DNA of 58,879 nt, counting the filler, from Dugesia japonica (lineage: Eukaryota): assembly GCA_001938525.1 (NCBI GenBank). It is 6 parts of 6 records of this genome, joined end to end, with 100 filler letters (N's around TTAATTAATTAA, not from the genome) between each part and the next. Parts side by side here need not be neighbours in the genome. Positions count along the whole stretch, not along the records: positions 10,711 to 19,369 come from MQRL01646551.1; positions 19,470 to 28,552 come from MQRL01646512.1; 4 more parts are not named here. One strand, given 5' to 3'. The position numbers were made by a program, and so were the translations under genes. Shown one piece after another: positions 5,061 to 49,019 of the stretch. Under the pieces are notes generated by a model. It was not told the DNA's origin and ran no database searches. It worked only from the letters and a program-made list of their open reading frames with translations. Every line of letters begins with the position of its first letter. Within the stretch, counting starts at the first letter, position 1.

Positions 5061-5099
5061 TTAAATTCATAAGATTTTATGATAAGGATTTATCTTTTT

Positions 5100-5280
5100 A
5101 AATTTAATAATAATCAAATTTTATTAGTTTAAAATTCATAAAGAATCAAAATTTAACAGTTTAGAATAAATACAAATAAAAATTTAACAGCTTGAAATTA
5201 ATATAAATCAAAATTTAACAGCTTAAATTTCTTTGAATTTAAAATTTACCATCTTAAAATTGATCAGTTAAAATTAATGT
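5100..5280 (+). repeat. ~31-bp tandem repeats
   Basis: Units like AACAGCTTGAAATTAATATAAATCAAAATTT; same family as 9380-9880. Confidence 0.75.
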
Positions 5281-8439: not shown

Positions 8440-10175
8440 AAGTTAGTATTATGGCTAAGTTATAATTTACAATTAACAATACCGATAAAATTTGAATTAT
8501 ATTAAATTTAAATTGATAAATATCTATTCGTATTAATTATAAGCTGCTAAACTTTGATTCATATTGAGTTTAACCAGATTAATTTGATTTCATATTAATT
8601 TTAAAGTAAACAAGTTTATTTCATATTGAATTGTAAGCTGTTAAATTTTGATTGATATGAATTCAAGACAAATAATTTCTTAGTCATCATGTAAAGAATA
8701 ATAGACAACATATACAGCCTCTTAGCTAACATGTTAACATTATAATTACATAGGATTACGTATAAGACATTAAAAATTGTCATTAATTACATAAAAGTCA
8801 TTATAAAATATCAAACATTACAAGAAATATATGTAACGGAAATATTTCTAAAGTTTACCAATAGTATAAGAACTTAAACAGAAATTTACTAGAAATATTT
8901 GAAAATGATTACAATACACGTGTAAGAAGAGTGCATTACATATGCAACAGAACAAGTATTCACTGAATAGTAAACAAGATCAAAGTATACCAGAGGAATA
9001 ATTACAATAATTTAATTACTTCAACATAGAAAATACACTTTATCATGGAAACGTATACCCTTCATAATATAAAATATTGGATTCATCACAAAACATTGAA
9101 AATAAGCATTTCCGACATTTTAAATATACACTTCATCTCAGAAATAATAGGGTCCATCTTTGACAATGCACGAGTCATCATAGCAAATAACGGATTCAGC
9201 ATTAAAAATCCAACACACATCATTAAAAGTACAGCATTCTTGCCAGATTATATAGTATTTTTCACAGATTAAACATGTTTAGTCATTGTAAATTCACATT
9301 TTACCATAGAAAAATACAGCTTTCATAATAAAACTCAAATAAATAACATAAAATATACAACAAATAAGTTTAGACAATTCAAATTTTTGTGCTTTGATAT
9401 TGTAATTTAAAGTTTATAAGCTTAAAATATAAAAATTAACTGCTTGAATTTGATATGAATCAAAATTTATCAACGTAAAACTAATATGAAATAAACTTTA
9501 TCAGCTTGAAATTAATATGAATCAAAGTTTAGCAGCTTATAATTAATAAAAATCTAATTTTTATCAGTTTAAATTTAATATAAATTAAATTTTATTGGCA
9601 TAAAAGTTAATATGAATCAAAATTAAACAGCTTGAAATTAATATGAATCAAAATTTAATATCTTCAAATTAATATGATATAAAATTTTATTGCTTAAAAT
9701 TAATATGAAATAAAATTTATCAACTTGAACTTAATGACTCAAAATTTAACATCTTTAAATTAATATGATACAAAATTTAACTGTTTAAAGTTCATAAGAA
9801 TTAAACTTTATCAACTTAAAAATAATATGAAATAAAATTTATCAGTTTGAACTTAATATGAATCAAAATTCATCTTAAAATTGATTAGTTTAGAAATAAT
9901 TAACTTATAATTGAAGTTAAAATTGATTTTTGTTTTATCATATTAATTAAAATATGTCAGACAATTATTTATTATTGAATAATTTTGTTTTAACATAATA
10001 ATTAAATAATACCGGAATGGATTAATTTCATTATTATTGGAAGGATTGCTGGTCGATAAGTTCAATTATGAACGGACTCGATTGGATGCTAACCTTGGTG
10101 GATTCAATCCGTTGGACTGTACATGTTGGAAGAGTTAATGTAAATGTATGGAATTCAAACTAAACTGTTAAAGCC
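8440..10175. repeat. Second copy of the modular repeat element found inside the long-TIR element
   Basis: 31-bp repeats in inverted (8440-8670) and direct (9380-9880) orientation; 9918-10035 matches 5308-5425; 10048-10170 matches 6195-6320. Confidence 0.75.
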
Positions 10176-10710: not shown

Positions 10711-13700
10711 TTAAATAAAGTTTTACCAAAAGATATCAGAATTTTAGCCTGGAGTCCTGTTGATGAAGATTTTAGTGCTAGGTTATATTTCTGATTGTTA
10801 TTGTTTGTATGGATTTTCCTAATAGATTTAATTCTATAGGGCGATCATATAAGTATTTCTTCCCAAAATCTGATCTTTCAATTGAAGTAAATAGAATTTC
10901 AAATTGTAGTTTACTAATCAATAAAATTAGTCGATGAATGCAGCTGGGAAAAAACTCATAGGTTCACATGATTTTAGAAATTTTTGTTCAATGCAAATCA
11001 GTCAGGGTGTAACACATTTCGTACGGAATATATTCGATGTAACAGTCGAGCCTTATGATGAATTGTAGAGATTTATTGCAGATATTTATTGATTGATTTA
11101 TTTTACGGATAATTTCAGAGAAAAAGAAAGTGAACATAAAATATATGTAATAAACATTAGTGCTAGCTCATTTATTTATCATCAAATAAGATGCACTGTA
11201 GCAATATTGTTGATGATTGGACAGGGTAAAGAAGATATTGATGTTATCGACCATCTTCTTGATATTGAAGGGGTTGGAGGATTAGGAAAACCTTTCTATC
11301 AAATGGCTTCNNNNNNNNNNNNNNNNNNNNNNNNNNNNNNNNNNNNNNNNNNNNNNNNNNNNNNNNNNNNNNNNNNNNNNNNNNNNNNNNNNNNNNNNNN
11401 NNNNNNNNNNNNNNNNNNNNNNNNNNNNNNNNNNNNNNNNNNNNNNNNNNNNNNNNNNNNNNNNNNNNNNNNNNNNNNNNNNNNNNNNNNNNNNNNNNNN
11501 NNNTAATTTTTTTATTATAAATTTTATTTTTTAATAGTCTTTTTATTATTTATAATTACAAGAAGTATTGTGAGATTAATTTTGGGATTTGTGCCATTGA
11601 TCGCATTTAAGTTTCTATCAAAATAAAATGTATTTTTATAGAAAATCATTTTATTTTGATCATAGCTTTTTATTTTAATGAAATTTTTATTTTTTTATAT
11701 ATTTTTATTATTTATTTTATTATTAATTCAATTTTTTAATATTTAATTATTTTATTTTTTAATATTTTTTTTATTATTTAATTATTTTTTTATATTCTAT
11801 TAATTAAAAATTTTAAAAAAGATCTTTCCAATCAATTAAATAAATATAATTAAAACATTAAATGCACCGTGATTATTAGACAATTTTTTTNAAAAAAAAG
11901 TATAAATAACATTTTATTTTATATTATAAATTCGAGATTTTTTTTACTGTCCGAAAATTTAGGAATCAATTGGAAAAATCCATAAATCAATATTTAGAAA
12001 AAATATTCCATACAAATTAACCAATTCGTCTATTGGCAAAACATTTTAATAAATATTTTTCGACCTCATAATATAAGAACTTCACTGTGTTTAAATTAAT
12101 GAGTATTAATTTAAGTTTAAGACTAAAACAAGCATAAAAAAAATCAACGTAAAGAGATTTTTCAATTCATAAATTTGTCTCTCCACAAAAAATAGTTTAA
12201 ATAGCATTGAAGATCATCTTTAATTTCCATAGATTTTTTGCTTCGAATCTTATTTAAACCAATGGTAACATATTGAGCAATATACTCTCAAATTTTCACG
12301 TAATTATTGTACCAGGAAACAACATATCTTATATAATTGGCATAATGTTGTAGTTTTTCTAACCGACACAATATACATATACGGAATAAATCCAAACATT
12401 TCTATATTTTTTTATTATTTATTATATTTTTTTCAATTATTATTCTTAATTAAATTCAAATGACATTTACTTACTAAAGAAGGTCTCAAGAAAATACTTG
12501 TATTGGACAGTAAAATCATCAAAATTACAAGTACAAAAACTCTTCATAGTTATTTTAAGAAAACATAATCGAATCAAACTTAAGTAAAAAAATTTATTTA
12601 ATTCGATAATCTCATTATACGCGATGAGATATGATTCGAAAGAATTACCTTTTTTAGTAAAATGCAAAAGATAAACAAGTAAAATTTTACAATATTCAAT
12701 TAATTGATTTCTTTGACATCCGATTCGATTGAGTAATGCTCAATTACATTTTATTTTTGCAAAATAATTTTCAAAATTTCATAGTTGGATTACAAAAGAA
12801 AAATAGTTAAAGAAAAATTGATAATCGATTCAATTAAGGAGAATTCGTTGAAACATTACAATTTTTCGTATTCGCAAAATAATTTATATACTCCGATATA
12901 CAATAGCTGACTCGATATCAAATATTTTTATATTATTTCTCGTTAGTGTTATGTATCATGCGCATTTTGTACCGTGAACGTTATGCCTGTGTAGCGTTAT
13001 GTCGAATTAGTGTTGTCCGTTTATGTTTTATCGTGACACAGTGGGAATTTATTAGTCAAAACTCAAAGAATATCTTGTCCCCACTATAATTCATTACTTG
13101 TCTTTTGCTGAATTCGACAAATTTTCAAACCCGCTGAAATCAGAAATTTTTTGATGTTCTTATTACATAAAAAGTATCCAAAAGTAAGTTTTCATTTAGG
13201 CTAGATTTTTTGTAAATGTGAAATAATGTGTGATTCTTTGATTATTTGAAGGCTTATCATTGGCAGGGCCATTATAAGGCTCTCCTCTCAAAATAGGTAC
13301 ATTTTGACGAGCTTTATTAACTTTTAAATTGTGTATAGAGCACTTTTGTAGAACCACCAAACATTTTTCAGATTAATCCACAAAATCTTACATTTTGCTG
13401 TTTTCTTCTCGACTAAGTTCAATTAATGAGGCCACACTGAATTCGTATCTCCATTTATGATTGTACAGACTTTTTTTTGACGGTATTTTTTATAAGTAAT
13501 CTCACGAACATATATTATTTTACAATTACAAGAATTATTGCGAGAATAATTATTGAACGTAACCATTTATCGTTTTTCAGAATTCATTAAAAAAAGGTTA
13601 GTTAAAATTTTTTTTGTTTTTGATAATAATTCTAATTTTCGACTTTGTCTTCGTCAGGAAGTGACTTTTTGAAAAGTAAATTCCTGACGAAGACAAAGTC

Positions 13701-15217
13701 GAAAATTAGAATTATTATAAAACAAAACAAAAATATTTGATCGAAGCTTTCATTTTAATGAAATATATTATTTTACAATTGAAATTATTGTGGGAATAAT
13801 TGTTGGACTTAACCATTGATCGTTTTATAGAATTCATTTAAAATAAAAGCTTCGATCAAAATTTTTGTTTTATTTTTATTGATATTTGATAACAACTCGA
13901 TATTTCGACCTTGTCTTCGTCAGGAAGTGACTTTTTGAAAAGTAAATTCCTGACGAAGACAAGGTCGAAATATCGAATTGTTATCAAATATCAATAAAAA
14001 TAAAACAAAAATCTTGATCGAAGCTTTCATTTTAATGAAATATATTATTTTACAATTGAAATTATTGTGGGAATACTAGTTGGACATAACCATTGATCGT
14101 TTTATAGAATTCATTTAAAATAAAAGTTTCGATAAAAATTTTTGTTTTATTTTTATTGATATTTTATAATAATTCGATATTTCGACCTTGTCTTGAAAAA
14201 GTAAATTCCTGACGAAGACAAGGTGTAAATATCGAATTGTTATCAAATATCAATAAAAATAAAACAAAATTTTTGATCGAAGGTTTTATTGGAAATATTA
14301 TATTTAAAACGTAAAATAATTTTGAGAAATTTTTATTGAAATTTAAAATTGATTAAAAAAAAGAATTCATTTAAAATAAAAAGTGAAATATATTATTTTA
14401 CAATTGAAATTATTGTGGGAATAATTGTTGGACTTAACCATTGATCGTTTTATAGAATTCATTTAAAATAAAAGCTTCGATCAAAATTTTTGTTTTATTT
14501 TTATTGATATTTGAATTTATCAAAGACTAAGTCGAAATATCGAATTGTTATCAAATATCAATAAAAATAAAACAAAATTTTTGATCGAAGGTTTTATTGG
14601 AAATAATTATATTTTAAACGTAAAATAATTTTGAGAAATTTTTATTGAAATTTAAAATTGATTATAATTCCGAAAATGCCGGAGTTTTCGCGACCAAAAT
14701 TCGACCAGAATTGCAATCCTTACACATAAAATAAAAAATTTCAATTTTCGCTGTCGTATTTTTTCCTCTTTTCGTTGCAATTAATATCGACTTGGGAATG
14801 ATTTTAGATTTACCATTGGTTTTCTACGAAGCTTCATATGACGANATGGATTGGCAAACCAGTAAAGAAGCGGTCAATGATTATGTTGAAGATATCCAGA
14901 ACCTTTGGGTTTCTTATCAAACAAAGTTCACCACTTTGCTCTATATTTCCACATAAAATTATTCTATTTCAGACAGACAATATTGAAATTATTCTTGGAC
15001 GAAATCAATCTGAAACACTCCTCAGGTAAAATGATTTGGAATGAAAGAAAAATTTACAAAATTTCCAGATATCGAAAAAGTTTCTCTAGTCAATGCTATT
15101 AGCACTGATATTAAAGCTGACAAATGGAAGCCTCTTCTCAAAAGACCGAAAGAACTCACACTAAAAGAGAAATTAAACAATCACAGTAATAAAAAGCTGA
15201 AAGATTTTAATGAATAA
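10711..15217 (+). CDS. PUS3: tRNA pseudouridine(38/39) synthase, TruA family (5'-partial); exons 10711-10781, 10826-10886, 10931-11064, 11119->11310 (runs into gap), 14808-14925, 14973-15025, 15069-15217
   Basis: Spliced translation LNKVLPKDIRILAWSPVDEDFSARFNSIGRSYKYFFP...LIGSHDFRNFC...SSFIYHQIRC...KPFYQMA..DLPLVFYEASYD.MDW...KWKPLLKRPKE; GT-AG introns of 44, 44, 54, 47 and 43 bp keep frame; ~3.5-kb intron after exon 4. Confidence 0.92.
13628..13662 (-). ncRNA. Minimal type-I hammerhead ribozyme
   Basis: Minus strand acUUC-CUGACGA-A-GAC aaa GUC-GAA-AAUU-A^GAAuu; stem I only 3 contiguous bp. Confidence 0.72.
13679..13713 (+). ncRNA. Minimal type-I hammerhead ribozyme
   Basis: AAUUC-CUGACGA-A-GAC aaa GUC-GAA-AAUU-A^GAAUU: 5-bp stem I, 3-bp stem II, palindromic helix III, predicted cut after 13708. 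Confidence 0.82.
13894..13928 (-). ncRNA. Minimal type-I hammerhead ribozyme
   Basis: Minus strand acUUC-CUGACGA-A-GAC aag GUC-GAA-AUAU-C^GAGuu. Confidence 0.7.
13945..13979 (+). ncRNA. Minimal type-I hammerhead ribozyme
   Basis: AAUUC-CUGACGA-A-GAC aag GUC-GAA-AUAU-C^GAAUU; predicted cut after 13974 (AUC triplet). Confidence 0.85.
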
Positions 15218-15450
15218 ATTTTGACTTAATTTTTATTGTAATTAATTAATTAGAATTTTTTAATTAAATTTTTTTTTCATTATTTTAATAATTAAATTCA
15301 TAATTTTTTAAAAATTTTGTATTTAAATTTTTTAAATTTACATTCAAAAAATTTTAAAAAAAGCATTATTTTTGAAAAACACATTTTCTGTGAGGTTTAG
15401 TAATCTTAATCTTACTTATTAATTATCAATTTATTAAATTTCCTTTTACA

Positions 15451-15647
15451 CCTCTTCTCAAAAGACCGAAAGAACTCACTAAAAGAGAAATTAAACAATC
15501 ACAGTAATAAAAAGCTGAAAGATATTTATGAATAAATTTTGACTTAATTTTTATTGTAATTAATTAATTATAATTTTTTTCATTATTTTAATAATTAAAT
15601 TCATAATTTTTTAAAAATTTTGTTTTTAAATTTTTTAAATTTACATT
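15451..15647 (+). repeat. Local duplication of the PUS3 last-exon end and 3'UTR
   Basis: Near-identical to 15131-15345, with a 2-nt deletion (GAACTCACACTAAAAG vs GAACTCACTAAAAG). Confidence 0.9.
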
Positions 15648-15802
15648 NNNNNNNNNNNNNNNNNNNNNNNNNNNNNNNNNNNNNNNNNNNNNNNNNNNNN
15701 NNNNNNNNNNNNNNNNNNNNNNNNNNNNNNNNNNNNNNNNNNNNNNNNNNNNNNNNNNNNNNNNNNNNNNNNNNNNNNNNNNNNNNNNNNNNNNNNNNNN
15801 NN

Positions 15803-17105
15803 TAATTAATTAAAATTTTTTTCATTATTTTAACACTTAAATTCATAGTTTTACATTTAAAAAAATTAATTATGCTTTCTATTCTATACACTGTGACACA
15901 TTTCCTATCAGGTTTAGGGTATTTCCACTGAAACCGTTGAAATAATTTTTAAAAATCATGTAGCACATCTTTTACACCAGAGGTGCGCAACTTAGTAATT
16001 TTTTAATAAAATTTTTTTTCATTATTTTACCATTTAAATTCGTAATTTTTAAAAAAAAATTTTGTTTAAAATTTACATTAAAAAATAAATGATGCACTCT
16101 ATTGGTGGAAATAAGCATACGCTGTTACACATTTTTCTACGAGATTTAGTTTAGGTAACTCCCACTAGGACCGCTGAAGTAATTTTTAAAAATCATGTAG
16201 CTCATGTTACACTAGGTGTTCACAACTTAAGCTATTTTTTGTAATTAATTAAAATTTTTTTCATTATTTTAACTCTTAAATTCATAATTTTTCATTTTAC
16301 ATTAAAAAAATTAATTATGCTTTCTATTCTAATCATGTAGCTCATGTTAACACCAGGTGTTCGCAACTTTAGCTATTTTTTGTAATTAATTAATTTTCAT
16401 TATTTTAACACTTAAATTCATAATTTTTTATTTTACATTAAAAAATAAATGATGCTTTCTATTCGGGGAAATAAACATTGTGAAATCGCTTTGACACATA
16501 TCCTACCAGGTTTAGTTTAGGGTATTTCCACTGAAACTTGAAATAATTTTTAAAAATCATGTAGCACATATTTTACACCAGAAGTGCGCAACTTAGTTAT
16601 TTTTTATAATTTTTTAACTAAAATGTTTTTCATTATTTTAACACTTAAATTCGTAATTTTTAAAAAAAATTTTAATTTCAAATTTACATTAAAAACTAAA
16701 TGATGCACTCTATTGGTGGAAATAAACATACGCTGTTACACATTTTTCTACGAGGTTTAGTTTAGGTAATTCCCACTAGCACCCCTAAAATAATTTTTAA
16801 AAATCATGTAGCTCATGTTACAGTAGGTGTTCACAACTTAAGCTATTTTTTGTAATTAATTAATTAGAATTTTTTCATTATGTTGATGTTTGAATGCACG
16901 ATTCTTTCCTTTTACTTTAAAAATAAACGGTGGGTTTCTATTGCATATATCATTTAATTTCACCAAAAGTTCATATAACTGATGCCGTCTATTTGTGAAA
17001 TACTGGAAAAAAAACACTACATACGCTGTTACACATTTTCTACGGGGTTTAAGTAAGATAACTCCCACTACATCTACTGAAATAATTTGTAAAAACCATG
17101 TAGTA
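15803..17105 (+). repeat. Tandem array of ~140-245 bp units in two subtypes
   Basis: About six units sharing TTTTCATTATTTTAACACTTAAATTCATAATTTT...AAAAATCATGTAGC...CAACTTA. Confidence 0.85.
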
Positions 17106-17554
17106 ACTTTAGCTAATGACGACAGCATAGAATAATTTTTTTTACAACAGCTATAGTATTACAGCATATATGAATTATTAATTGTATCTAATCTAATCTT
17201 ATTTCAATTGTGAATTCATTTCTAATTATTTCAATGTTTAAAATTGTCAATGGTTTTCATGTTAAAAATGATTTTACATATTTTCTGTGGACGTGTTCAG
17301 TGTAGTTTTATTTGTTTTTACAAAATTATTTTCAGATTTTTCCTGATTATTTCTATAACATTTAACTATTCAGAGGTTTCTCAACCTTTATACGTTGTTT
17401 TATTAAAGTTTCTTTGTCATTTTGATGTGTTGATTGGTTAAAATGTTTTTTTACTAGATTTATTTTATTTGCCTGGAGTGTGAGAATAGTTTCCAAATGT
17501 TTAATGTTTAAAAAGTTATAATGTTCCTTGGCTTTTATAAATGATAAAATGAAA

Positions 17555-17950
17555 TGATATTAGATGCTAGTTTTGAGCCATTAGAGTAGTTTTAAGCCAA
17601 GTTTAAACGACAGGTTAAAACGAGCAATAGCTTATGGTTCTCACAAGTTAAATGATCACAAAAAAAATATTGTGTAACTTCCAAAGACATTTTGGCATTG
17701 CTCTATTTCATAGAGTATTAAAAGCATTATACCCGAAAAAAATTAGAGCAAGAACAGATCATAAAACTCTGACATTTATGACGAAGACGAGTGAGCATAT
17801 TACTTCGCTATTCTAAACAAGGATTACAAATTTAGTAGAATTTAATTTTGATCTAGAATTCAGAAAACAAGCAGCGTATGGGAATGTTGATGGACTTACA
17901 AGAATAGGCGAAAGCTGCTGTTCAGAATTACAGACGTCAAGATGCTAAGG
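17555..17950 (+). mobile_element. Ty3/gypsy RNase H remnant
   Basis: LDASF, RAIAYGSHKL...YCVTSKDILAL, RTDHKTLTFM, FDLEFRKQAAYGNVDGLTR across frameshifts. Confidence 0.85.
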
Positions 17951-18184
17951 TGTAAACGGAAATCTAATAAATTGATAATTAATAAGTAAGATTTAAATTA
18001 GGCGAGTATCATGTGAAACGAACCCGAACCAAAGGGTTGCGAGTCTGTACTCGAGCTACGAGTCAAGGGCTTCATCCCGAAGATCTGAATTTTTTGGGGA
18101 CACCAGATTAAATTCTTCGAGGGGTTTTATTTGGACAACTACCCTAGATTTTGTCTACTCACTTAGATAAAATCCCAACAATTA

Positions 18185-18390
18185 TAATTTAAAATAAAAG
18201 CTTTGATCAAAATTTTTTGTTTTTATTTTTATTGATATTTGATAACAATTTGATTTTTCGAATTGTTATTAAATATCAATAAAAATAAAACAAAAAATTT
18301 TGATCGAAGCTTTTATTTTAAATGAATTCTGTAAAACGATCAATGGTTATGTCCAACAATTATTCTCACAATAATTGCAATTGTAAAAAA
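18185..18390. mobile_element. Palindromic PLE pLTR pair lacking the hammerhead core
   Basis: Inverted repeat centred at ~18259; same family as 13511-14660. Confidence 0.85.
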
Positions 18391-18599
18391 TAATAATAAT
18401 AAAATTAATAATAATAGTTAGGATAGAAGATTCTTCCATAATACTTATTTATTAAAATTCAAAAACAACATACCTGAATAAACTAATTTTTACAATTAAA
18501 ATAATATTAATAATTTTCTCAATTATTAAAATGAAATTATATGCATGAATATAAGTGATTTATATCTACTTTCCTCTCTTCAAATTTTGAATTTCAATC

Positions 18600-19150
18600 T
18601 CCTTCAGCCATTCAAATTTTCTGGGTTTGGGCTTCCTTGCATGATCTATAAACATCTGTTATGAAGTTATGAATTTTGTTATTTGATATGGGTCTTCAGA
18701 TCTGAAACTGTCTTTCTTCAGCTTGTGTGAATCAACTTTTACAAATACTTCCTTCCCATCACTAAATTNTCTATATGTTCGTCTGACATATTCATATTTG
18801 CGTAATCTTTTAGCTGGTTCTTGTAAATTTCCCTTTTCTACTTGCTTAATTTTTACCATCTAAATTTTTTAGTTGTGGTAGCCCATGTAAAACTCTATTT
18901 CTTTCAAAGATTTTTTCGAAAGGAAATAATCCAGATTATTTCTGTAATGTCAAATTCATAGTAAATTGTATTTGAGATATTAATTTGTGGCAGTTTACTT
19001 CCGAGCATTCATCTTTTCTTGTTGTTACGACATTTATCAAATTTTTTTTATCTAATATTGTTTCTTTTAAACCAAACTCGTTTTCTCTTGGCATCTTGAC
19101 TATGTTTTTGTTACATCTAAATGCTTCGCTTTCTTTTCTGACGACAATTT
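18600..19150 (-). mobile_element. Probable Ty3/gypsy integrase C-terminal remnant
   Basis: FSDGKEVFVKVD...FRSEDPYQITKFIT resembles the GPY/F module; heavily decayed. Confidence 0.5.
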
Positions 19151-19369
19151 TTCAACTTCGAGTCTACTTGTCGCCATTTTTAATTTCAGTACCCAGTGTT
19201 TCACCCCAACAGTATTATAGTTTTTAAAATATTATCTGAGAAGACCATAGAAGAACAGAGAACAACCCATGAAAAATTATTTGAAATAATTGACCAAAGA
19301 GAAACGTTCTACAAGCAGGTAACAGATCATCAACAGAACTGGAAAACCAGAGCAGATGGAAATCTAAAT

Positions 19370-19469
19370 NNNNNNNNNNNNNNNNNNNNNNNNNNNNNNN
19401 NNNNNNNNNNNNNTTAATTAATTAANNNNNNNNNNNNNNNNNNNNNNNNNNNNNNNNNNNNNNNNNNNN
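19370..19469. other. Artificial 100-bp scaffold-joining spacer
   Basis: 44 N + TTAATTAATTAA + 44 N. Confidence 0.97.
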
Positions 19470-20439
19470 ATTTCAATTATTTTTATCATTGTTTTACCAT
19501 TGTCATATTTTCTGCAAATATGTAGGTGAATCTTATTTGTGACTGATTAATTTTTTATCGATGTAGCAATTGTATTATTCATTAAGGGCGTGAAGTTCAA
19601 TTAATTAAAAATATTTAAATTTTAAATTTTATTTATTTAAATTTATTTTAATTAATATAATTAATATAAACCACAATTATTTTGAGTTCACCCTCTTTGA
19701 TCGAAATGTTTTCATGGTTCTTCCTGTGAAGTGTCAAACGATAGCCTGTTTCTAATTATCATAAAAATATTTCTTTTATTTATGTGAGATTTACAAATTT
19801 AAATATAATATATAGAATTTTAATTAGTTTCAAAAATAATAATTTAATGATTTGAAATAAAAAATAGTTTAGATAAATTTCGAATATTGCATTTTACGTA
19901 TGATGAATCAATTTATCAGAAGATGACAAAATCCTTAAATCAATGTGTTGTTTCATTATTGTAATTTTTGTTTTTTCTTGTGTGAATTCTTTAAATAGAT
20001 ATATTTATCGGAAATTGGTTTTTCAATGAATTCTTTAAATCTAAGAAATAATAATTCTAACAATTTATAAACCTTATATTTCAATGAAATCTCAAATGTG
20101 ATCAGTAGTTAAGTCCAGTAATTATTCCAGCAATAATTGTAATTTGTAAAATAGATTTAACTCAATAAATATATTGATTTCAATCATATTCATAAAACGT
20201 CTATTACAAATATTTAGAATTCTTTCAAAGAGCTAAACTTTCGTTAAAAATTACAATTATTTCGCGAATAATTGTTTAATTTAGCTCATTTTTAAAATTT
20301 CATTAAAATTAAAATGCATTAATTAAAAATAATTATTAATGATTTTTAAAAATAGAAATTAATTCTAGACTATATTTTAATTTAATTAATAAGTTTAATT
20401 ACAAATCATATTTCCAATTCAAACTTGACTTTAGAATGA

Positions 20440-21120
20440 GACAAACAAGGTAACTGTATAAGCCCCGCACATTCAAGGGATTTCAAGATTAACAAAAATT
20501 ATTTTTAATAATTTTCTTCTCATAAATTATTCAACACGACTAAATCCAAAATAACAGCTTTCTAACATCATGTTCAATAGATGATTACAAGAAGTTTTTT
20601 GTTGATGAAAGTGATTTTAATCTTTATATACGAAGGAACTATAAAATAAAATGTTTGTAGAACAAATGTGCAGCATATAGTTCACACTATTACAAGACTT
20701 AATATTATTATTAATGGCAATTAATGAAGTTTCAGTGTTACATTTTAGGATTTCTGTCGATGAATGCAATAGTGAGAATCTTTCTCAATTGCTGATTAAA
20801 TTACATAGTAAGACGATTAAAGAATTTAAGATTGCTGACGATATAATCTTTACAAGTGATGTTAGAGTTTACAGGCACTGCTTATGAAACGAAGCAAAGC
20901 CTTTGAAACAGGACATGCTTAATGTCTCCATGTTAAATCCAATTGGATATTCCTTTAGTAAAATCTAAACATCATTCAGGAGTTTACTAGAACAACATTT
21001 TAATGATCCTGTTTAATGAATACCTGCAGAAATATCACCTATCACGTTAGAAAATTGGTCTACGAGGTAGATGTTAATTAGAAGCGATTGTGACTAATAT
21101 AGAATTACATTAATGTGTTC
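20440..21120 (+). mobile_element. Tc1/IS630-like transposase remnant
   Basis: FFVDESDFNLYIRRNY (first catalytic D region) and SPMLNPIGYSFSKI (SPxLNPIE motif); many stops. Confidence 0.78.
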
Positions 21121-22140
21121 AAATGTTTCATAAATAACTATTTTGTTATATTATTTATTTATTGAATAATTACTAGGTTTTTCTCAATATTTAAATACAA
21201 TAAAAATCCAAGTGACGAAAGAAAACATTTATTTTCATTTTATATTATTTAACTGAAGTCATTTTAATCATGAATAAAAACGTAATTTAATTTATAATAT
21301 TCATTGGTTTTACTATTAATATCTTACAAAAAATTTTATTTTTTTGATTATTAAAAAAGATTACGGTTTGATATTTAATGCCAAAATATCAATGTCGATT
21401 GTTGGACGTAAAATCAATGAGTTCACCTTAATTTTGTAATAAGACCCATTTTGAGACAAAATCTTGTTTGACAAAGCATAAATTAAATTATCACTCACCT
21501 AGAAAATATTTTCAATCGTAAAATATTGAAATTTCATTTTTTATTTAATTATTTAAACGGAAATGATATTTTGTTTGTTTCTTAATATTAATTTTCGATT
21601 TGTCGAAAGATTTTAAATAGAAATGCAAACTTAATTTTTTTTAGTCAAAAGTTATCAATCTATCTATTTATATATTTATACAAAACAGATTTAGATATTA
21701 TTTCCAGGTGTTTAATCGTTTTTGCAATAATTTTCTCAGGTGTCTAAAAACGGTTGAATACAAAATAAATACCAATGTATTTATATGGATTTGTATCAAT
21801 CAACTTTAGAATATCTTCACCCTTGATGCTGATCTGAACAAGGGAATGATTCTCAGAACACTAGGGATAAGAAAATTTGTCTATGCAAAAGTCCATGACG
21901 ACCAGCTAGCAACTGTCACTGCGACATCAAGCATATACTAAAATGCAGCTTCGGATGATGCAACAAGAGCGACATTTCTTACTCAACTTTGTAAGCTCTA
22001 TCCGTTGATATAGTTTTGACAGATTATTTAAAATTTATTGTATTTTCTTCAGACCATTTTGTAAATTTTAGAATACAAAAATCATTTACAAACCGTTATA
22101 TTTGACAGTTGATACCTAGTTGTACTTATAATAATTATAC

Positions 22141-22201
<61 letters not shown>

Positions 22202-22274
22202 NNNNNNNNNNNNNNNNNNNNNNNNNNNNNNNNNNNNNNNNNNNNNNNNNNNNNNNNNNNNNNNNNNNNNNNNN

Positions 22275-22342
<68 letters not shown>
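22141..22342 (+). repeat. (ATT)n microsatellite with gap
   Basis: Pure ATT runs either side of Ns. Confidence 0.98.
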
Positions 22343-22344
<2 letters not shown>

Positions 22345-23324
22345 GGTGGTTTCGAAATCTAAATAAAAACAGTTTAAAAAAGTTAGTCATAAATATTTAT
22401 TAACATGATTTATTTATTTACATATGCAAAATCTTTGTTTAATTATAAATTATAAAAATGAATTATTTTTAAAAAGTATGCGAAATAACCAGTGACGTAT
22501 GTAAAAGCACATCATAATTCCATTATAAATATTTTAACCAGATTTTCGCATTTCTACAGAATAAATGTATTCGTTATTAAAGATTATAATAAAACATTAA
22601 GCCAATTACTAAAATAAGTTAATATTCAAATGATAAATAATAACAAATAATAACTAATAACAAATGAATAATAAATAACAAAAAATAAAAAAATATTCAT
22701 TAAATATCAAAATTGAATATTTATAAAATCTCTTATCTAGTAGCATAAAAATTATTTAAATCCATAAAAAACACTACAGCTGGATTTAGTTTTTTTATTA
22801 TCTTTTTAGAGATTTCACGATATTGATTAGTATGTCATCAAAATCTGAGTTATTGTTAAATAATTTAGAATTTTTGAAATTAATGCAAAGACCACGTGGT
22901 GAAAATAAAATACCGTGTACTTCTTATGATTAAAAACAATTAATTTAATTTTATTATCAATTAATATTTATTAATTTATTTTTAGTTAACTCACAAATTA
23001 AACTAAATATTACAGTTAAACAAAGGAAACTATTAAGCAAATAATTTATCATGAATAATATGATAACACACATAATAGATAAAACATTAAATCTAATTAA
23101 ATATGCCAAATTTATTGCATTTTTTTGTAAAACTACAAAAATAGAAGAAACCTCAATAACTATTTAAAAAATATTTCGCTATGGCTGCATTTCTATACTT
23201 AACAAAAAGCTTACTTAAATTATTTTTAAAAATAAAATTGTCATAGTTTAAAAATTCTCATTATAATCACATATGTAATTAATTAGTAATTAAAATTCTA
23301 AACTAATCAATATATTTCATTAGA

Positions 23325-24080
23325 TTAAAAGCATCGATCAAAATTTTGTTTTGTTTCTTTTTATTTCTTTTTTGGTAGTTATCCAAATTTTCGAAAATTT
23401 TCTTCTTCAGGGACTTTTTGATTGATTAGAATAATTAACAAAATAATAATTATATCCAAAACGCAAGCACATTTGGGTATCCAATTACAGAAACCAAGAC
23501 AAAACTTTTTTGGTCCCAAATGCATTTGTGATGGTAGAAATATATACAATAAGACAAATATCATTTATAAAATACACGCACCTTATGTAAGGATACATAA
23601 ATAGGTGAAACATGCAGAACCATTCAAACAAAAATTAAGGAACATCTCAAACAGAAAGAAAGTCTTCAAACATTTTTAACACACAAAAAATTTCATCAGA
23701 ACAACATCACATACCATGAAAAACATTAACAGTCTACATCTCTACAATTCGCAGGAAGAAACAAGAAGAAATTTTAATCAAAGAAGTAAATCTAAAATCA
23801 ATGTGGTTTATAATAATTATAATAATTATAATAATTAAAATAAATTATTCTAAATTATCCAAAAGAATTTCAATAAAATTAAAATAAGTTTGTGAATTAT
23901 TCTAATAATGGTTAAATTAATCAAAAAAATAAAGACAATAGTCGAAAATTCAAATAACTAACACAAATAAAATAAAATATAAACAAAACAACATTTTGGT
24001 CGAAGCTATTAATTTAATAATATCTGAAATGTGATCATTAGTTAGGTCCAACAATTATTCTCACAATAATTGTAGTTGCA
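23325..24080 (+). mobile_element. 5'-truncated Penelope-like element: inverted 5' pLTR + GIY-YIG endonuclease remnant + 3' pLTR
   Basis: KTNIIYKI/RTLCKDT*IGETCRTIQTKIKEHLKQKES (~23550-23665); decayed direct pLTR at ~23930-24080; inverted pLTR with hammerhead at 23325-23414. Confidence 0.88.
23381..23414 (-). ncRNA. Minimal hammerhead ribozyme, divergent variant
   Basis: Minus strand GUCC-CUGAAGA-A-GAA aauu UUC-GAA-AAUU-U^GGAU; stems I and II differ in sequence from the other copies but still pair. Confidence 0.7.
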
Positions 24081-27000
24081 TTGAATATATTATAAAAAAT
24101 ATTTTTCTGAAATCAATAAAATAAATTTTATTATTATAAAACATAGTATTCATTAAAACACTGATAAAATTGACAATATTTCATCGAAAAATTTAATTAA
24201 TGAAAGCTAAAATTTCAATTCTTAATAATTATTATATCGTCAAAATTTTCAGCAGATTAAATAACCAAAAAAAAATACTAATTTTCAATTTAAAAATATT
24301 TATTTTATTTTTATTCTATGTTGTAAATAATAAAATTCATCAATTTGAAAAATTTAATTTTATTTTGGCTTATGAAAATAAGAAGATTAAAATATTATAT
24401 TATTAAAAATGTTGTCTTCATGCCAGACAATGTAATATTTGAGAGCAAGTTGACAGAAACTTATAGAAAATCGTTGCATCTATTATGAGATTTTCTATTA
24501 TTTAAATATTTCAATAAGAAAAACTAGAAATACCTATTTCTAAATGTTTATAATAATGTTATTAAATATTAATTTTCCAGTATTTATAGGTCTCCAACTT
24601 ATGTCTCTGGTATTCCATCACAATAAATATTAGTAAACATTAAGTAAAATTTGTTTTTTTATAATTCAAAAACATTAAATTATTTTGATTTTAAAAAATA
24701 ATATATTAAATAAAAAGAATTGTCAGTTTGTTCAGAAAATGGATGAATTTCCAGATATTTAATATAATTTGTCAAATAATTTTGAAGTAACATTGTGTAG
24801 AAAATTAGAGGGACATTTTAAGATCACAAAATAAATTTTAATTAAAAATTTAATTACAACAATTAATTTAATTTATTAATATTAAAGAATCAAATCAAAA
24901 AATTCTTTCTTATGTTTATTAAAATAANNNNNNNNNNNNNNNNNNNNNNNNNNNNNNNNNAGCTGTTTATCTTTTAAATAAAATAAAACTGATAAATGAC
25001 TTTCTGATAATTCAAAAGGATAAAAGATCTTTGCTACAAAATTCTTAATCTTTTATCGAAATTTTATTGGTTTATTTAGTAAGGTTTTTATTTTTAAATC
25101 TCAAAAAATCTTTTTTTTATTATTTTGTATTAAATAAAAACATTTTATTAAATAAAACATACATTTTATTTTAATCGACGTTTCTTCTTTATTTTAATAA
25201 AATACTTTTTTATTATTAAAAATTCGTTATTAAATTATTAAATTCTTTTTTTCTAAAAAAATTAAATTCAAANATTTTTCCAATCAATTATTTTTTTATT
25301 TCAAATGAAAAATCAATAAAGACGGTTTACATATTTTTTATTTCAAATATTATGTTTTAAACAAATCATTTATTTATAATATGAAAAATAAAACTGGTTA
25401 AAGTTTAAATTGGAAAATGTTTTTGTTTTCTTGTTTAAATTTTTTTATTAAGCTAATTTACAGATATTTTTTTAAAGTTTTTAATTAAATGATATTAGAA
25501 ACATATAAATTTAAAATAGTTTGTGGATTATTTATTTCTAGAAAACTGAAGTTCTGATAAAATATAAAACTTCCATTTTATTGGTTTTTGACGCGAAAAT
25601 TAAATTAAAATTTAATACTTTTACTCTAGCATTTCAAATAAAAAGAATTTCAAAATCTACAAAAAATACATTAAATTATTCAAGTTATAAAAATCAAAGT
25701 TTCTTTGTTTTTGAAAATTTCTCCAGAATATTTAACATTTTAACTTCAAAAAAATATTTATTATTCATCCGCATTTAAATAGAATAAATACTATCTCAAA
25801 CCTTTTGACTGCAGTCAAATAAACGTTTATCTAATTAATTGTTGCACTAATTTTTAATTTTTTTATCTAAACTTCTAATATATATATATATATATAATTT
25901 TTTGCCATCTTTTAATAATAATTTAAAATGGATGGTGTGATAGCCTCAGTACAAGTTTTTGGGGATAGTCAATTAAATTAAAAGATCGTCACTAAATTGA
26001 TGCTAGTCTTTTTGGCCGATTCTCAGAATGTTTGATGGCTATCCTCTTAGCATTTCAATGGTCCTCATCGACTTTGTTCGGTAAACTAGAGTGGTCAATA
26101 TCTCAAAATTTGAATCTCACAGAAAGACTTTGAAATTTAATAAAAAAACCTTTATAATACTCCAAAGCAANGCATCTTTTGCGTACTCCACAAAAATATC
26201 TTGAACCGCTTTTGCAACTTTTAGACATCAATTTAAAACGAATAAAAGTAGATGTTTAAATTTTTGTTTTTTTCTCTACTTGGCATTGCATTTCTAAAAG
26301 CTCTAAGGTTTAATAAAATTTACTTACATAATAAAAAAATTAACAAGATAAATAAATGTTGAACATATTACAATTAAAAATAAAATCACGAAGATTATAT
26401 TACAACCCAATATATATTCTGCACACACCCACCCACACCCACACATCAAACACCATAGCTATTTCTTTGCAAAATAATTGAGATAGAAAACTAGGTGAGT
26501 ATGTAATATAAAGTTTGTGCTTCCAATCAAGACTTCAATAATGTTAAATATTATCCAAATTTTGATTTTAATTAAATCTATTTAAATGTTTAGAAAACTT
26601 TATTGAATAATTTTGCTTTTAAAACAAAAATATTAATTAATCATCTTAATGTAACAGGTTAAAAAAGTTTTTAAATAATGTCAAAATTAAGAGAATATTT
26701 GATGCAAGTTATAAATTATTCATATGACCTCACAAGTAACCGAGAATTTTAATTAAAATAATTACTTTGCTAATGAATCGAAAAAAAAGTAATCAAATTC
26801 ATTTATTTCTATGCCGATAGAATGATAAAGAAATTTTACTTGAAAAATCACTGATTAATGGTGACACTTTTAAAAATAAAAACATAATATAGATTTAATC
26901 TTGACAATTCCATCAACGAAAAAACAACTCATTTCTTCAATTTATCCACATTGAGCTTGTCATTTCTATCAAGTATCGGCAATTGAAAAATAAACGAAAA

Positions 27001-27189
27001 TTGTAAGCTTGTAATGGTAGAAACAATGGAATTGATTAAATTACAAATATATTTCTATTTCCTGTTTTGCATATCATTATGTCAATTGGAAACCAAAAAA
27101 TAAATGCATTAGAATATTACAAATGAATATTGTGAAAATTGCATGATATAAAGTCGTAACAAAGTTTGAAAATCTAAATAAAAATATAC

Positions 27190-27503
27190 CTGCATACTGT
27201 CAGCACAATGAGTGGTATTCATGGCTACATGTGCTACCATGCATGTCCTGCAAGATAAACTACTCATGGCTTCTCTAAGTAGCTGAGACAGTTTACTAGT
27301 TCTATAAGGAATATGTCTCTGTCCATTAACTAGAGCTAACAAAACCGCAGCTGTCGCCGATAATGATAATGCAGTAGAATTCGATGGAAAATCTGATTTG
27401 GCAGAGTCAGTGGGAGTAATTTCTTTATTACTCAGGTCTGGTTGTGATAGAATTTTTCCAGATCCAAAATCTAACATATGTAAGCGACTTCGTCCACCAG
27501 CAA
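27190..27503 (-). CDS. KIF26: Internal exon of a kinesin-11 (KIF26/VAB-8-like) motor domain
   Basis: VAGGRSRLHMLDFGSG...LSLSATAAVLLALVNGQRHIPYRTSKLSQLLREAMSSLSCRTCMVAHV; flanked by TTTTCAG and GTATAT on the minus strand. Confidence 0.92.
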
Positions 27504-41936: not shown

Positions 41937-44900
41937 TTTCATAAATTTTCATAAATTCATTACCTTTTGAAAATCTGAGGGCATGTTAGCAACTGATTTC
42001 CCTTTAATTGTATTTGTCATGTTCTAAATATTAATTATAATAATAATACCAATTTGTATAACTCATTTACTAATGTTAATTTTCTCAATGTATATTAATA
42101 TATAATTTATTATTTAGTAATATCTTTACAAAAAAAGTTTTCAACGGAATTCAGAATAATTTTGATGTTAATATATAAAAATGTTTAATAATTTTGAAAA
42201 TATTTCCCACACTTTCATAAAATATTATTAAAAAAATTTTATGTTTGATAATAAATTATTTATAATCAGTCAATAGTTTTCAAATGGTTTTTGTTTTTGA
42301 CTTTCCAAACTTGTAAATGAAAAAATATTATTATTAGATATTTTCAGTTAATTTTTTAGATTTTTTTCTAAACCGTAATAAATTTCTGAACAAATCAACG
42401 AACCTTCAACAATTTATAATTGTTTTAATTAATAAACTAGTGTGTATTTTAAATTAAAATTATTTAATAATTTAATTATTTTAAAAATAATTAATCAAAA
42501 TATATTTTTGTATTCTACATTTTAGAATTATAATTAAAATTAGACAGTAATATACAAAAAAATTTTCATAAACAAAATAACAGGATTTACTTAAACAATT
42601 GTAAATGTCAAGTCATCAAAAATGTAACAGTTGAAGAAATATGCAGTTAGGAAAATTATTCGAAATACAAATAATTAAATCAAAATAAATATAAGAACAA
42701 CAAAATTTTTTAAAGAATGCTTCTTTTATTATGAAAAATATATTTTAATAAATACTATGATAAGTTGAAGTACAAAACAATTTCCATATTATTTTTAATA
42801 CAATCAAAAAGTCTCTGGTTTCTGTTTTATTAATAAAAGCAAGCGTATTTGCATTGCAAGATGATTTGAAAAAGAAGAATATTTTAAGAAGAAAAGTGCA
42901 ATGAAAGATTAATGATTTTCTAATAAAAAAATAATGATGTTGTGGAGATATCTTTTATTGTATATGTTATTGTGTAATGTTTATTAAAATATATCTAAAA
43001 AGCAAATATTCTTTTAATAAAACATAAGTAACCCCATTTAAAATAAAACTTTATTGTTATATATTTCGACGGATTAACCGTCCTCATCAGACAAAAAATG
43101 AAAACAAAAATGATTTTATTCATTCTGTATTATTCAAACAAAGATTAATGCGATTATATTGAATATAAGACGGCTATAATAATTAATTTTTAAATAAAAT
43201 TCTTAATTTTTAAATTGTTTATCAACCTTTCAATAAAAAATTAATTTATATAATAATATTTTATTATTGTTACCTATAAAATCGAAGAGGTTTTGTCAAA
43301 ATTCTTTTAATATAGTTTATTTATATTATTTATAAAAAATAAATTTTATAGAAAACAAAACTTCAGGTTATAACGAACTTAAATTTCGGAACCCTTGAAA
43401 GTTCGGTTTAAGCGGATTTCACTGTATATTCAAATTTAGAATATGTTTTTTAGATAATAAGGCTCTCAATATAATATTAACAAGTGTCATTGTTTTGATC
43501 AGTTTAATTCTATTTGGTTAAAAATTTTAAATGAATAAAAGTAAGTTACAACTAATTTGTTTTTGTTTACGAAGTTTTCAGTGTAAAAAACCTTTTTAGG
43601 ACGAACTTATATTTACTATAATTTATTTATTTAACAATTTATTTATAATGTTAAAGAAGAAAAGTCTATAACTATATATAATAGATAATGATGGGTTTTT
43701 ATATAAAATTTTATATTACTCCGATAGCGTTTGTTTAATAAATAAGACGTTTTATTTAGTTTTTAAATGTTTTATGTAGTTGCAAATGAGCTTTTTGCGC
43801 TGATTACGAATATGTAAACCATTGTACGGTAGGCTTTTAAAAAATTAGATAATTTTTAATTGGAAATTTTAAAAGAAATGTAAAAAATTCATTTTTTAGG
43901 CAAACCGAAAATTATTACAATCTACGGCAGACCTTTTGAAATTTAAAGTATCACTCCTTATAATATAGACGATTTTCTATAACTAACAATGAAAATCTTA
44001 TGTAAAACTCTAAAAACCAAAAAATTGTCTATTTCTGAAAATGACTGTAGCACTTATATTACGTAAATAAAAAAAGCCTCCGACTATATTAAAACAGTTT
44101 TAATACCCGGAAATTGTATTTTTTAAATCATTTTAATAAATGATGTGAAGTTAATCATTTTTATACCACATTATTTTCATGAAATTGTTTTCAAATTAGG
44201 CTTTAAACGCATTTAACAGTTCTGTATGATTTATATACCTTATCATAGGATTTTGTAAAAGTTTCCACAGATTTGCAATGTGATATGTTTTTCTTAACCA
44301 TTTTAAACATTCTTTCTGGAATTTCGTTTTTAGATTGAAGTCTTCTCTATCTAACAAACTGTATTTGATAAGAATTTCTTTAGATTTTTGGGAAATGCTT
44401 TATAACTTTTACCAGTCTGAGTGATTTCGAACACCAAACCAAACTGAAGACCATTCATAACTTATAAAACTATTTAGGCTTTTAATATATATACATATAA
44501 TCGATGATTTAATATAACAGGTTACGTAATATAATAATTTTCAATTCCGATTGTTACCTAACATAAAGAAATAATCTTTTGAAAATATTAAATGTAGGAA
44601 TTATTTGACACCAATATATAAATAAATATATAAAAATACTTAAATTATTTGAATTAATTAATCAAATTTTTATTAAAATAAAACATTTTGATCGAAGCTT
44701 TTATTTTAATGAATTCTGAAAAACGATCTATGGTTATGTCCAACAATTGGTCTCGCAATAATTGTAATTGTAAAATAATCGAATTTTGATATTTATTTAC
44801 AGTTATTCTGTAAAGCTACTGTAACTGCAAGAAACAAATTAATGAAATCATTTTATAAGAGACACAATAGTTCCTTTGGAACTTCTAGGAATAATTTCAT

Positions 44901-48240: not shown

Positions 48241-48789
48241 CTTTACTCAACTAAGGTATATTTGACCTTAGATATTGAATATTTTTTTAACAGCAAAATT
48301 AGGTAATAGACAAATTATATTGAGAAAGGCTATTTCTATGTTAATTTAACAAAGAAATATTTTAATTAGAACAATCACAATACCAATGGTATTATAATTG
48401 GTCAGAATTCTTTTCTGAGCAGGAATAAATTAGATGTGGTTCACAAAATATAAGCAATGAAACAAACGTCATAAAAGTATTAGTATTAGAAAATTTATTT
48501 GAAGATGATTTATTTTAATAATGAAATTTAATGAAAGATCATATATGATGTGAATTAAACATAGTTGATAACCGTTGAATCATAAATTAAACAATCGTTG
48601 GTAACTTCTTAAAGTGTATGCATGATTTGCTAAAATGTAATATAAATTAGTCAACTTCTGTTTTTCTTTAAACATTTGTTGAAGTTTTAAGAATTCATCA
48701 TCAGTATGAGAGTAGATGAACTAATTATTGTTTCTTTTATAGCTTATAAATTCTTTTAAATAATAATAATAATAATATTAATAATAAAA

Positions 48790-49019
48790 ATTCATTTAAA
48801 ATAAAAGCTTAGATCAAAAATTCTTTTTTATTGTTTTCTTGAGATTGATTCGATATTTCCATTTTGTCTTCGTCAGGAATTGACTTTTTCTGACGAAGAC
48901 AAAGTCGAAATATCGAATCAATCTCAAAAAACAATAAAAAAATATTTTTGATCGAAGCTTTTATTTTAATTGAATTCTGAAAAACGATCAATGGTTATGT
49001 CCAACAATTATTCTCGCAA
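48790..49019. mobile_element. Palindromic PLE pLTR pair with head-to-head hammerhead cores
   Basis: Plus copy CUGACGA-A-GAC aaa GUC-GAA-AUAU-C^GAAU (48886-48918); minus copy has a damaged stem II. Confidence 0.85.

Follow-up and report, generated by a model that had tools for sequence, protein, structure and literature searches.

The hammerhead motifs in the window (the whole stretch of Dugesia japonica DNA analysed, 58,879 nucleotides including filler) are real, minimal type I hammerheads, and the AAUU/AUAU difference in helix III of their main family is a genuine split which extends far beyond the window. We consider it probable that three things hold jointly: the motifs lie in pseudo-LTR stubs of a Penelope-like retroelement, the split marks two subfamilies, and the additional stem I and stem II changes seen in one old copy, at 23410(-), originated at the level of DNA.

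A strict descriptor, requiring the core, an NUH triplet and at least 3 bp in both stem I and stem II, gave seven matches in the window and none in each of 60 first-order Markov simulations. All seven contain the CUGANGA and GAAA core with an NUH cleavage triplet (H17 being A, C or U), an extra base between positions 9 and 10.1 together with a G10.1-C11.1 pair, a palindromic helix III (complementary 15.2-16.2) and a stem I of three to five contiguous pairs that closes the motif. Stem I has just three pairs in three motifs; the five-pair form is limited to plus-strand arms, minus-strand arms having three contiguous pairs.

Two pairs of these motifs belong to a tandem array (13516..14604, period about 277) of head-to-head fold-back units, each composed of a long and a short repeat. 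In unit 1 the short right arm carries a motif at 13679..13713 (+; helix III AAUU at 13704-13707, H17 = A, predicted cut after 13708), and its mirror at 13630..13660 (-; AAUU, stem I of 3 bp) heads the long left arm, which extends to about 13516. Unit 2 is built alike, with a motif in the short right arm at 13945..13979 (+; helix III AUAU at 13970-13973, H17 = C) and a mirror motif at 13896..13926 (-; AUAU) heading a long left arm to about 13773. A separate fold-back pair at 48789..49019, both arms of which read AUAU, has an intact core in its plus arm (48890) and a broken stem II and G12 in its minus arm. The fold-back remnant at 18187..18384 is truncated within the hammerhead, and its left arm contributes AAAU, the sole non-palindromic helix III among 12 readable main-family copies. 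An unrelated family is represented by the motif at 43054..43094 (-), with a stem II of 5 bp, the 6-base palindrome AUAUAU as helix III and a stem I of 4 bp. The original prediction, which compared the copies at 13704, 13970 and 23386(-), quoted their letters correctly (helix III AAUU, AUAU and AAUU, the last at 23389-23386; stem II GAC/GUC or GAA/UUC; stem I AAUUC/GAAUU or GUCC/GGAU). It did not include the mirror motifs 13657(-) and 13923(-), the 48890(+) copy, the 43090(-) motif of a second family or the additional base that follows CUGANGA.

Other searches added little to this inventory. Rfam at gathering thresholds gave no match in the window, as would be expected for minimal forms without a closed helix III, and a relaxed descriptor allowing a U3-A8 core variant found no further motif there. 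A covariance model trained on nine window copies and searched in the window at E up to 1 returned 14 matches, comprising the nine training copies, three known broken copies of the family and two at E 0.5-1 which we treated as chance; the 43090(-) family was not recovered by this model. A CUGAGGA site at 34364 was dropped, its GAAA being broken and neither blastn nor nhmmer linking it to the family. A metagenome scan with the core plus stem II pattern gave 65 matches, none family-like beyond the pattern itself, and these served solely as background.

The family is another member of a published class, the minimal hammerheads (min-HHR) of metazoan Penelope-like element pseudo-LTRs, in which Cervera and De la Pena had already described covariation together with the additional core base and the palindromic helix III in 2014 (PMC4209133). 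In the available text and figures of that source the shared features are type I topology, CUGANGA with one extra base, the G10.1-C11.1 pair, GAAA-N-N'-U-H with complementary 15.2-16.2, a short stem I, U-rich 5' and A-rich 3' flanks, opposite-strand pairs 100-700 bases apart and covariation within a genome. A change of the AAUU/AUAU type was also described there, Fig. S3 containing AUAU (five rows), AAUU (one row) and the 6-base AUAUAU (Drosophila rows). Stem II in the present family (3 bp, loop of 3-4 bases) falls at the short end of the published set, and the Schmidtea example in the same figure has other stems, so that our family differs from the Schmidtea one; in the parts of PMC4209133 available to us we found no report of a single family in which two helix III states coexist at about 60:40. 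The Penelope hammerhead variants of Lunse, Weinberg and Breaker (as described in PMC6765202) likewise have a very short palindromic stem III and a type I fold; those variants cleave as dimers, as is predicted for the present family. If the explanation we favour holds, the result is one more family in the published class and little else, except that the AAUU/AUAU pair, differing at two bases inside one family, would allow the dimer model to be tested with natural variants.

Placement of the motifs in pseudo-LTR stubs of a Penelope-like retroelement is likely from the layout of the repeats. The 23410(-) copy and its partner repeat at 23930 flank a broken GIY-YIG endonuclease remnant (23449..23720, +), which has a frameshift and a stop, is preceded by a Cys-rich linker and lies about 200 bases upstream of this partner, the direct pseudo-LTR at 23915..24088 (+). 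The best GIY-YIG relative, P0003 (PF01541, E 1.1e-6), matches 23449-23720 by tblastn in two frames (E 4.5e-9 and 1.5e-8), although scanning both remnant frames directly against Pfam gave no GIY-YIG match. The top library match, P0002, was set aside as a tandemly repetitive protein with no GIY-YIG Pfam match. Direct and inverted pseudo-LTRs with a hammerhead occur as long plus short head-to-head copies, and four of five translated copies have a short open frame that begins at a shared ATG (one has an early stop); this frame probably represents the start of the element's ORF. The Cys-rich linker suggests a clade of Neptune/Nematis-like type. No reverse transcriptase of this element was found in the window, the insertion being truncated upstream of the linker; an RVT_1 fragment at 1527-1826 lies 22 kb away and was not linked to it.

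The arrangement of inverted repeat, endonuclease end and direct repeat is known from the accessible descriptions in PMC8557442 and PMC3846280. As in Adineta Pen2/Pen2a (PMC3846280), the scheme of PMC8557442 and the Anolis element PAc (PMC11167929), so far as these sources describe them, a short inverted head-to-head repeat accompanies a longer direct one, the repeat enters the first ORF codons, the C-terminal GIY-YIG lies beside the 3' repeat and the junctions are palindromic. Unlike in these systems as described there, most units here have no body between the arms, and we found no clear target-site duplication, a feature that is optional in this class: only AT-rich matches of 7-10 bases occur at three loci, and nothing convincing joins the 23410 and 23930 repeats. 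These two repeats are merely 77% alike, which counts against a single insertion.

It is highly improbable that the fold-back unit, instead of being a dead stub, is a non-autonomous, retrozyme-like element in its own right with ribozymes for processing its own RNA. Such an element could account for a motif present in thousands of contigs, for long copies that terminate at about the same place and for a tandem array with a period near 277. However, internal priming should produce fixed 3' ends within the start of the ORF, as described in the accessible part of PMC11167929; fold-back joints vary among contigs, and the same repeat ends the endonuclease-bearing insertion. Non-LTR retrozymes consist of head-to-tail monomers with one same-sense hammerhead each and a circular RNA, while the units here are head-to-head fold-backs. 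The cores of array units 3 and 4 (2 of 4 units) are broken or deleted, and the array copies are predicted to be inactive, since a transcript through a unit would fold into one long hairpin (-62 and -78 kcal/mol for the modelled fold-backs) in which the motif is buried.

The split in helix III involves only one variable pair (15.2-16.2), the outer A and U of the 4-mer being the invariant A15.1 and U16.1. Among the 12 readable copies in the window, four read AAUU, seven AUAU and one AAAU, so that helix III is palindromic in 11 of 12; the earlier statement that it is always self-complementary thus stands for the seven intact motifs and fails for the AAAU copy. With 13672-13766 as reference, three runs yielded 7745 contigs, 6979 contigs and 652 RNA reads at least 80% alike to it, and in these 15.2 A>U accounts for 38.8, 40.1 and 42.2% of depth or reads and 16.2 U>A for 40.0, 41.6 and 44.4%. 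None of the listed runs that contain the stretch itself is recorded as RNA, which says nothing for or against its transcription. Linkage of the two positions across the genome is inferred only from the matching shares of these two letters, which equal numbers of AUUU and AAAU would also yield; independence would give 48-49% non-palindromic copies. The cleanest X24 read with a change at 15.2 or 16.2 has one other difference, and some reads differ by H17 A>C or by G12>A alone. Association of 15.2 with 16.2 is significant on the 12 window copies (Fisher p = 0.010) and not on the five insertion units (p = 0.40).

The AAUU/AUAU swap needs just one historical event, and it likely marks two abundant subfamilies whose masters were selected for a self-complementary helix III. 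A neutral origin, in which a double change arose by chance in one master lineage, in an AT-rich genome, and was amplified without RNA selection, appears unlikely to us, though several observations fit it: a single event suffices, 124 of 372 GAAA-NN-T-H sites (33%) in the AT-rich window are complementary by composition, and G12>A, a change that should abolish hammerhead catalysis, reaches 7.4% of X1 depth and 33 of 493 X24 reads. RNA read ends show no pile-up at the predicted cut in 652 and 15 reads, such libraries being insensitive to cleavage. In the Anolis element, moreover, hammerhead mutants were without effect on insertion in vitro (available text of PMC11167929), so that the hammerhead was dispensable there and it is not established for Penelope-like elements in general that cleavage is under selection. 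Against neutrality, the second, unrelated window family at 43090 is also palindromic, over 6 bases, and three independent complementary states have a probability of about 0.04 at window background. By our count by eye, 40 of 41 minimal motifs in the published alignment (PMC4209133, as far as accessible) are complementary, with all four pair types, whereas metagenome core matches followed by NN-U-H are complementary in 0 of 7. As had been proposed, the palindrome is likely to result from selection, in active lineages, for a hammerhead that forms dimers, but the three copies on which that proposal was based cannot show it, because two are non-independent arms, the association has p = 0.40 on five units, and the stem I and stem II changes come from the third, decayed copy. 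The 13704 and 13970 copies are not independent since they are arms of one tandem fold-back array, between which blocks have been exchanged.

On the selective reading, a tandem transcript of an intact element would present two identical hammerheads, which would pair through A15.1-N-N'-U16.1, complete helix III and be cut after H17; a lineage would tolerate a joint swap at 15.2 and 16.2, and not a single change. Reverse transcription would start inside the first ORF codons, 5' truncation and inversion would give long-plus-short fold-back stubs, and the stubs would decay once inserted. A template switch was considered as source of the AAUU/AUAU swap and rejected, as we found no inversion that yields it (reasoned by hand). 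We regard as very doubtful a stronger version in which the AAUU (about 60%) and AUAU (40%) subfamilies have mutually incompatible palindromes that form a self/non-self code; each ribozyme would then cleave only with its own kind, because an AAUU-AUAU heteroduplex retains two of four pairs. If true, a new lineage would, through the swap, escape trans-pairing with old copies that are transcribed in their thousands.

Stem I and stem II give a different picture. In the nine-copy alignment three of ten pairs changed on both sides, and two of these three derive from the 23410 copy alone, a short inverted pseudo-LTR of an older subfamily (23315..23418, -; motif 23414-23381) with stem II GAA/UUC, stem I GUCC/GGAU, helix III AAUU and H17 = U. 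Of the paired changes originally claimed, the one in helix III is shared by many copies, whereas those in stems I and II come from one old copy. It is possible, if fairly unlikely, that all three changes are truly compensatory and that this copy came from a separate master subfamily with selected GAA/UUC and GUCC/GGAU. It keeps the core and three helices though only 60-71% like the main family, published families are described as rich in compensatory changes (PMC4209133, in the sections available), and the whole-structure covariation score (0.242 vs 0.110 +/- 0.029, inflated by related rows) is reached by none of 500 shuffles. Yet pair-count and pair-type measures do not beat shuffles (55 and 132 of 500), and among the rows listed for the main family (copies at least 80% alike) no variant of stem II reaches 3%. 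The stem I difference is a 4-base gap immediately before the core, seen on alignment to two other copies, so that the 5' strands are not column-homologous and there is no paired substitution. The closest relative of the 23410 copy, moreover, retains GAC/GUC: this is the long direct pseudo-LTR at 23915..24088, which has lost its core and has AAUU in helix III, the two being mutual closest relatives (77% vs 60-73%). That repeat is heavily decayed, and its GAC/GUC and 1.2 base could be reversions.

We conclude that the changes in stems I and II are likely to have originated as DNA-level events in this one dead insertion; the gap and a probable template switch explain them without RNA selection. 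The loop base is altered along with the stem II pair exactly as a fold-back copy predicts, and all three stem II and loop differences fit a single DNA fold-back copying event, in which a replication template switch around C11.1|G12 would convert GAC-AAUA-GUC to the GAA/UUC form in one step. In this copy 16 bases around C11.1|G12 as centre form a perfect DNA palindrome, compared with 4 bases in five other copies; in simulated point decay (12%), stem II changed on both sides and stayed complementary in 5% of cases, and the 16-base palindrome arose in 0.02%. The palindrome test was conceived only after the sequence had been seen. The core is intact and four stem I pairs remain despite the gap, which selection would explain too. 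The 23410 copy cautions that duplication, arm-to-arm exchange, gaps and DNA template switches, rather than RNA selection, can produce the covariation counted across genomic retroelement copies. Template switching can create apparent compensatory changes, as the accessible part of a study of rRNA genes describes (bioRxiv 10.1101/2021.04.15.439925), and there too neighbouring changes perfect a reverse-complement repeat in one step; unlike the cases described there, ours is one probable event in a dead retroelement copy, centred outside the loop of the RNA stem.

Seven intact CUGANGA...CGAAA motifs were recovered by a core search, three on the plus strand (cores at 13684, 13950 and 48890) and four on the minus strand (13657, 13923, 23410 and 43090). 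A strict descriptor (core, stem II, NUH triplet and stem I) retained all seven and gave no match in any of 60 first-order Markov simulations. In every motif CUGANGA is followed directly by an extra base, G10.1 pairs with C11.1 and helix III is palindromic; the extra base, the G10.1-C11.1 pair and a palindromic 15.2-16.2 are described as marks of minimal hammerheads by Cervera and De la Pena (2014, PMC4209133), where covariation within genomes is given as a further mark. These are real motifs of a class already known, and Rfam at gathering thresholds returned no match in the window. Six of the seven belong to a single repeat family, of which nhmmer found 18 pieces in the window (E <= 1e-3), including two without a hammerhead (20074-20144 and 44675-44774); the 20074-20144 piece has characters in common with the older subfamily of the copies at 23410 and 23930. 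The remaining motif, at 43054-43094(-), is well formed and represents a separate family, in which stem II has 5 bp and helix III reads AUAUAU, the form also seen in the Drosophila Penelope rows of Fig. S3 in PMC4209133; the window contained neither a second copy of this family nor an endonuclease motif nearby. The sole metagenome match with the full appearance of a minimal hammerhead, L038:401-440, has a 6-base palindromic helix III and a 4-bp stem I, on a contig of 33% G+C.

The family unit of about 160 bases runs from the hammerhead through an A-rich tract to a short open frame whose ATG is common to the copies, and long copies stop at roughly one common point. Copies occur as head-to-head pairs in which one arm is long and the other short. 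About 500 bases separate the two arms at 23315-24088, and within them lies a GIY-YIG-like motif that a frameshift and a stop disrupt; when both remnant frames were scanned directly against Pfam, no GIY-YIG match resulted. A library search with a 50-residue piece of the remnant returned two proteins, one of which, the GIY-YIG protein P0003 (PF01541, E 1.1e-6), has model features that resemble eukaryotic GIY-YIG clusters and aligns to 23449-23720 in two frames (E 4.5e-9 and 1.5e-8), Cys-rich linker included. An inverted repeat, an endonuclease end and a direct repeat form the standard truncated Penelope-like insertion as outlined in PMC8557442 and PMC3846280, and the layout at 23315-24088 matches that scheme. 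Since the window contains no reverse transcriptase belonging to the hammerhead element, its placement among Penelope-like elements is based on the endonuclease and the architecture. No target-site duplication was found to confirm the two arms as a single insertion.

The original prediction was that paired positions change together across the copies at 13679-23414, and the helix III, stem I and stem II letters it quoted are all present where it placed them. On a nine-copy alignment three of ten pairs vary on both sides, namely 15.2-16.2 (UA in five, AU in four) and a single pair in each of stems I and II, these last two changes being confined to the 23410 copy. The overall covariation score, which related rows inflate, was 0.242 against 0.110 for shuffled alignments and beat 500/500 shuffles, as did percent paired; pair-count and pair-type measures failed to beat them (55/500 and 132/500).

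The 23410 copy, a short inverted pseudo-LTR at 23315-23418(-), has as its nearest relative the long direct pseudo-LTR across the endonuclease, the 23930 repeat at 23915-24088(+) (77%, compared to 60-73% for every other pair with either). The 23930 repeat retains stem II GAC/GUC, and the three stem II and loop II differences between the two are exactly those expected if the 8 bases that follow C11.1 had served as template for their own reverse complement, an event that leaves a perfect palindrome of 16 bases where five other copies have 4. Replication template switching reportedly yields apparent compensatory changes in RNA genes (bioRxiv 10.1101/2021.04.15.439925), and it explains stem II and loop II of the 23410 copy in one step, the palindrome test being post hoc. 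In simulations of AT-biased point decay, 5% of copies acquired a complementary double change in stem II when decay was 12%, and 14% did so at 20%, but the 16-base palindrome arose in 0.02-0.05%. In stem I, GUCC and AAUUC do not occupy the same columns because a 4-base gap precedes the core in the 23410 copy when it is aligned to two other copies; ungapped, its 5' strand matches at 8/16 and 6/13. As aligned, the stem I change reads as this gap plus one 3'-strand substitution, and the surviving pairing could reflect selection within an older subfamily. Both stem covariations rest on one old copy and can be explained at the DNA level.

Helix III has a single pair free to vary, 15.2-16.2; base composition makes this pair complementary at 124 of the window's 372 GAAA-NN-T-H sites. 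Of 14 aligned arms (an arm being one of two head-to-head repeats in a fold-back unit), 12 were readable once two overlapping a fold-back junction were dropped: four are AAUU, seven AUAU and one AAAU. Fisher's test for 15.2-16.2 gave p = 0.010 on copies vs 0.40 on five insertion units. Two of the copies quoted in the original prediction, 13704 and 13970, lie in one tandem array (13607-14290, period 277) built of fold-back units reaching about 14604. Three central substitution sites sort the four arms of units 1-2 by side, while five, within and just past the hammerhead (loop II, 15.2, 16.2, H17 and one downstream), sort them by unit; 20 further by-side columns, merely the ends of two rows, were left out of the count. 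The array units share common ancestry and the hammerhead block was swapped between arms, so that 13704 and 13970 represent two haplotypes of the family within a single array and not independent samples. The mosaic arms of 13516-14604 suggest that arms exchanged sequence across a giant palindrome, or possibly reflect an assembly artefact. In the fold-back at 18240-18265 the two arms overlap on TCGA, which occurs at C11.1-G12 and, in C17 copies, across the predicted cut site; this overlap is possibly a microhomology junction.

Beyond the window, four runs were matched to 13672-13766 at 80% likeness, placing 7745 and 6979 contigs and 652 and 15 RNA reads, the 15-read run being too thin to count at 15.2 and 16.2. 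The A>U share at 15.2 (38.8% and 40.1% of contigs, 172/408 reads) and the U>A share at 16.2 (40.0%, 41.6% and 180/405) agree to 1-2 points, contig depth not being equal to copy number. Loose-end consensus sequences start with the AUAU form in the three larger runs, and in the RNA read run X24 the cleanest read carrying either change has one other difference. These data fit AAUU and AUAU as two linked haplotypes, matching shares alone being no proof of linkage. One loose-end group of five reads in another run, X23, has the wobble form AUGU. Other common variants fall at loop II (29% in the contig run X1) and H17, both tolerated positions, and no stem II variant was among the variant rows listed. 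G12>A (window 13701) stands at about 7% in both contig runs and in the RNA reads, well above the 0.2-1% of other core positions in contigs; many copies are therefore dead, perhaps as an amplified dead subfamily. Read ends piled up at no position in the 652 and 15 RNA reads.

Among the 56 rows of Fig. S3 in PMC4209133, 41 have a 4-base helix III (15 longer ones were set aside), and 40 of these are complementary (counted by eye as CG 29, GC 5, UA 5 and AU 1), the remaining row being CA. The helix III covariation is probably genuine, but it is already published and amounts to a single event. In an intact element's tandem transcript, two identical motifs would pair with each other to close helix III and would cut after H17; self-complementarity would be the constraint, which AAUU and AUAU could each satisfy, and a mixed pair keeps two of four pairs. 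Dimers are reported to cleave weakly and monomers not at all (PMC4209133), and a review (PMC6765202) restates the dimer model, citing an RNA Biol dimer-cleavage paper; among the titles listed by one literature search, none concerned heterodimer specificity of Penelope hammerhead palindromes, a topic that the RNA Biol paper may cover. The available text of a 2026 preprint on animal retrozymes does not mention planarians. By prediction, a transcript running through a fold-back unit buries the motif in a hairpin (-62 or -78 kcal/mol), compared to -3 to -4 kcal/mol for the free motif. Internal priming inside the ORF start may produce the fixed 3' ends of copies, as demonstrated in vitro for an Anolis element (PMC11167929). 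In that study hammerhead mutations left insertion in vitro unaffected and RNA-seq showed no ends at the site of cutting, which makes the role of cleavage a putative one.

The animal DNA of the window is AT-rich (15-32% G+C per 2 kb; 3277 N), with numerous AAT microsatellites. It includes host exons of a tRNA pseudouridine synthase (11093-11305, +), a kinesin motor (27109-27591, -) and an EF-hand and coiled-coil gene (49383-55118, +). A weak RVT_1 fragment (1527-1826(+), E 4e-4) has no link to the hammerhead family; by eye, the nearby frame 7074-7472 resembles a further LTR-retrotransposon pol remnant. An open frame at 38018-38497(+) encodes three C2H2 zinc fingers and, beyond these, unrelated acidic sequence, and stops at a gap. 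A 31-base minisatellite occurs at 5097-5258 and 9431-9874, and several copies of a dispersed repeat from a family different from the hammerhead repeat lie at 15233-16863.
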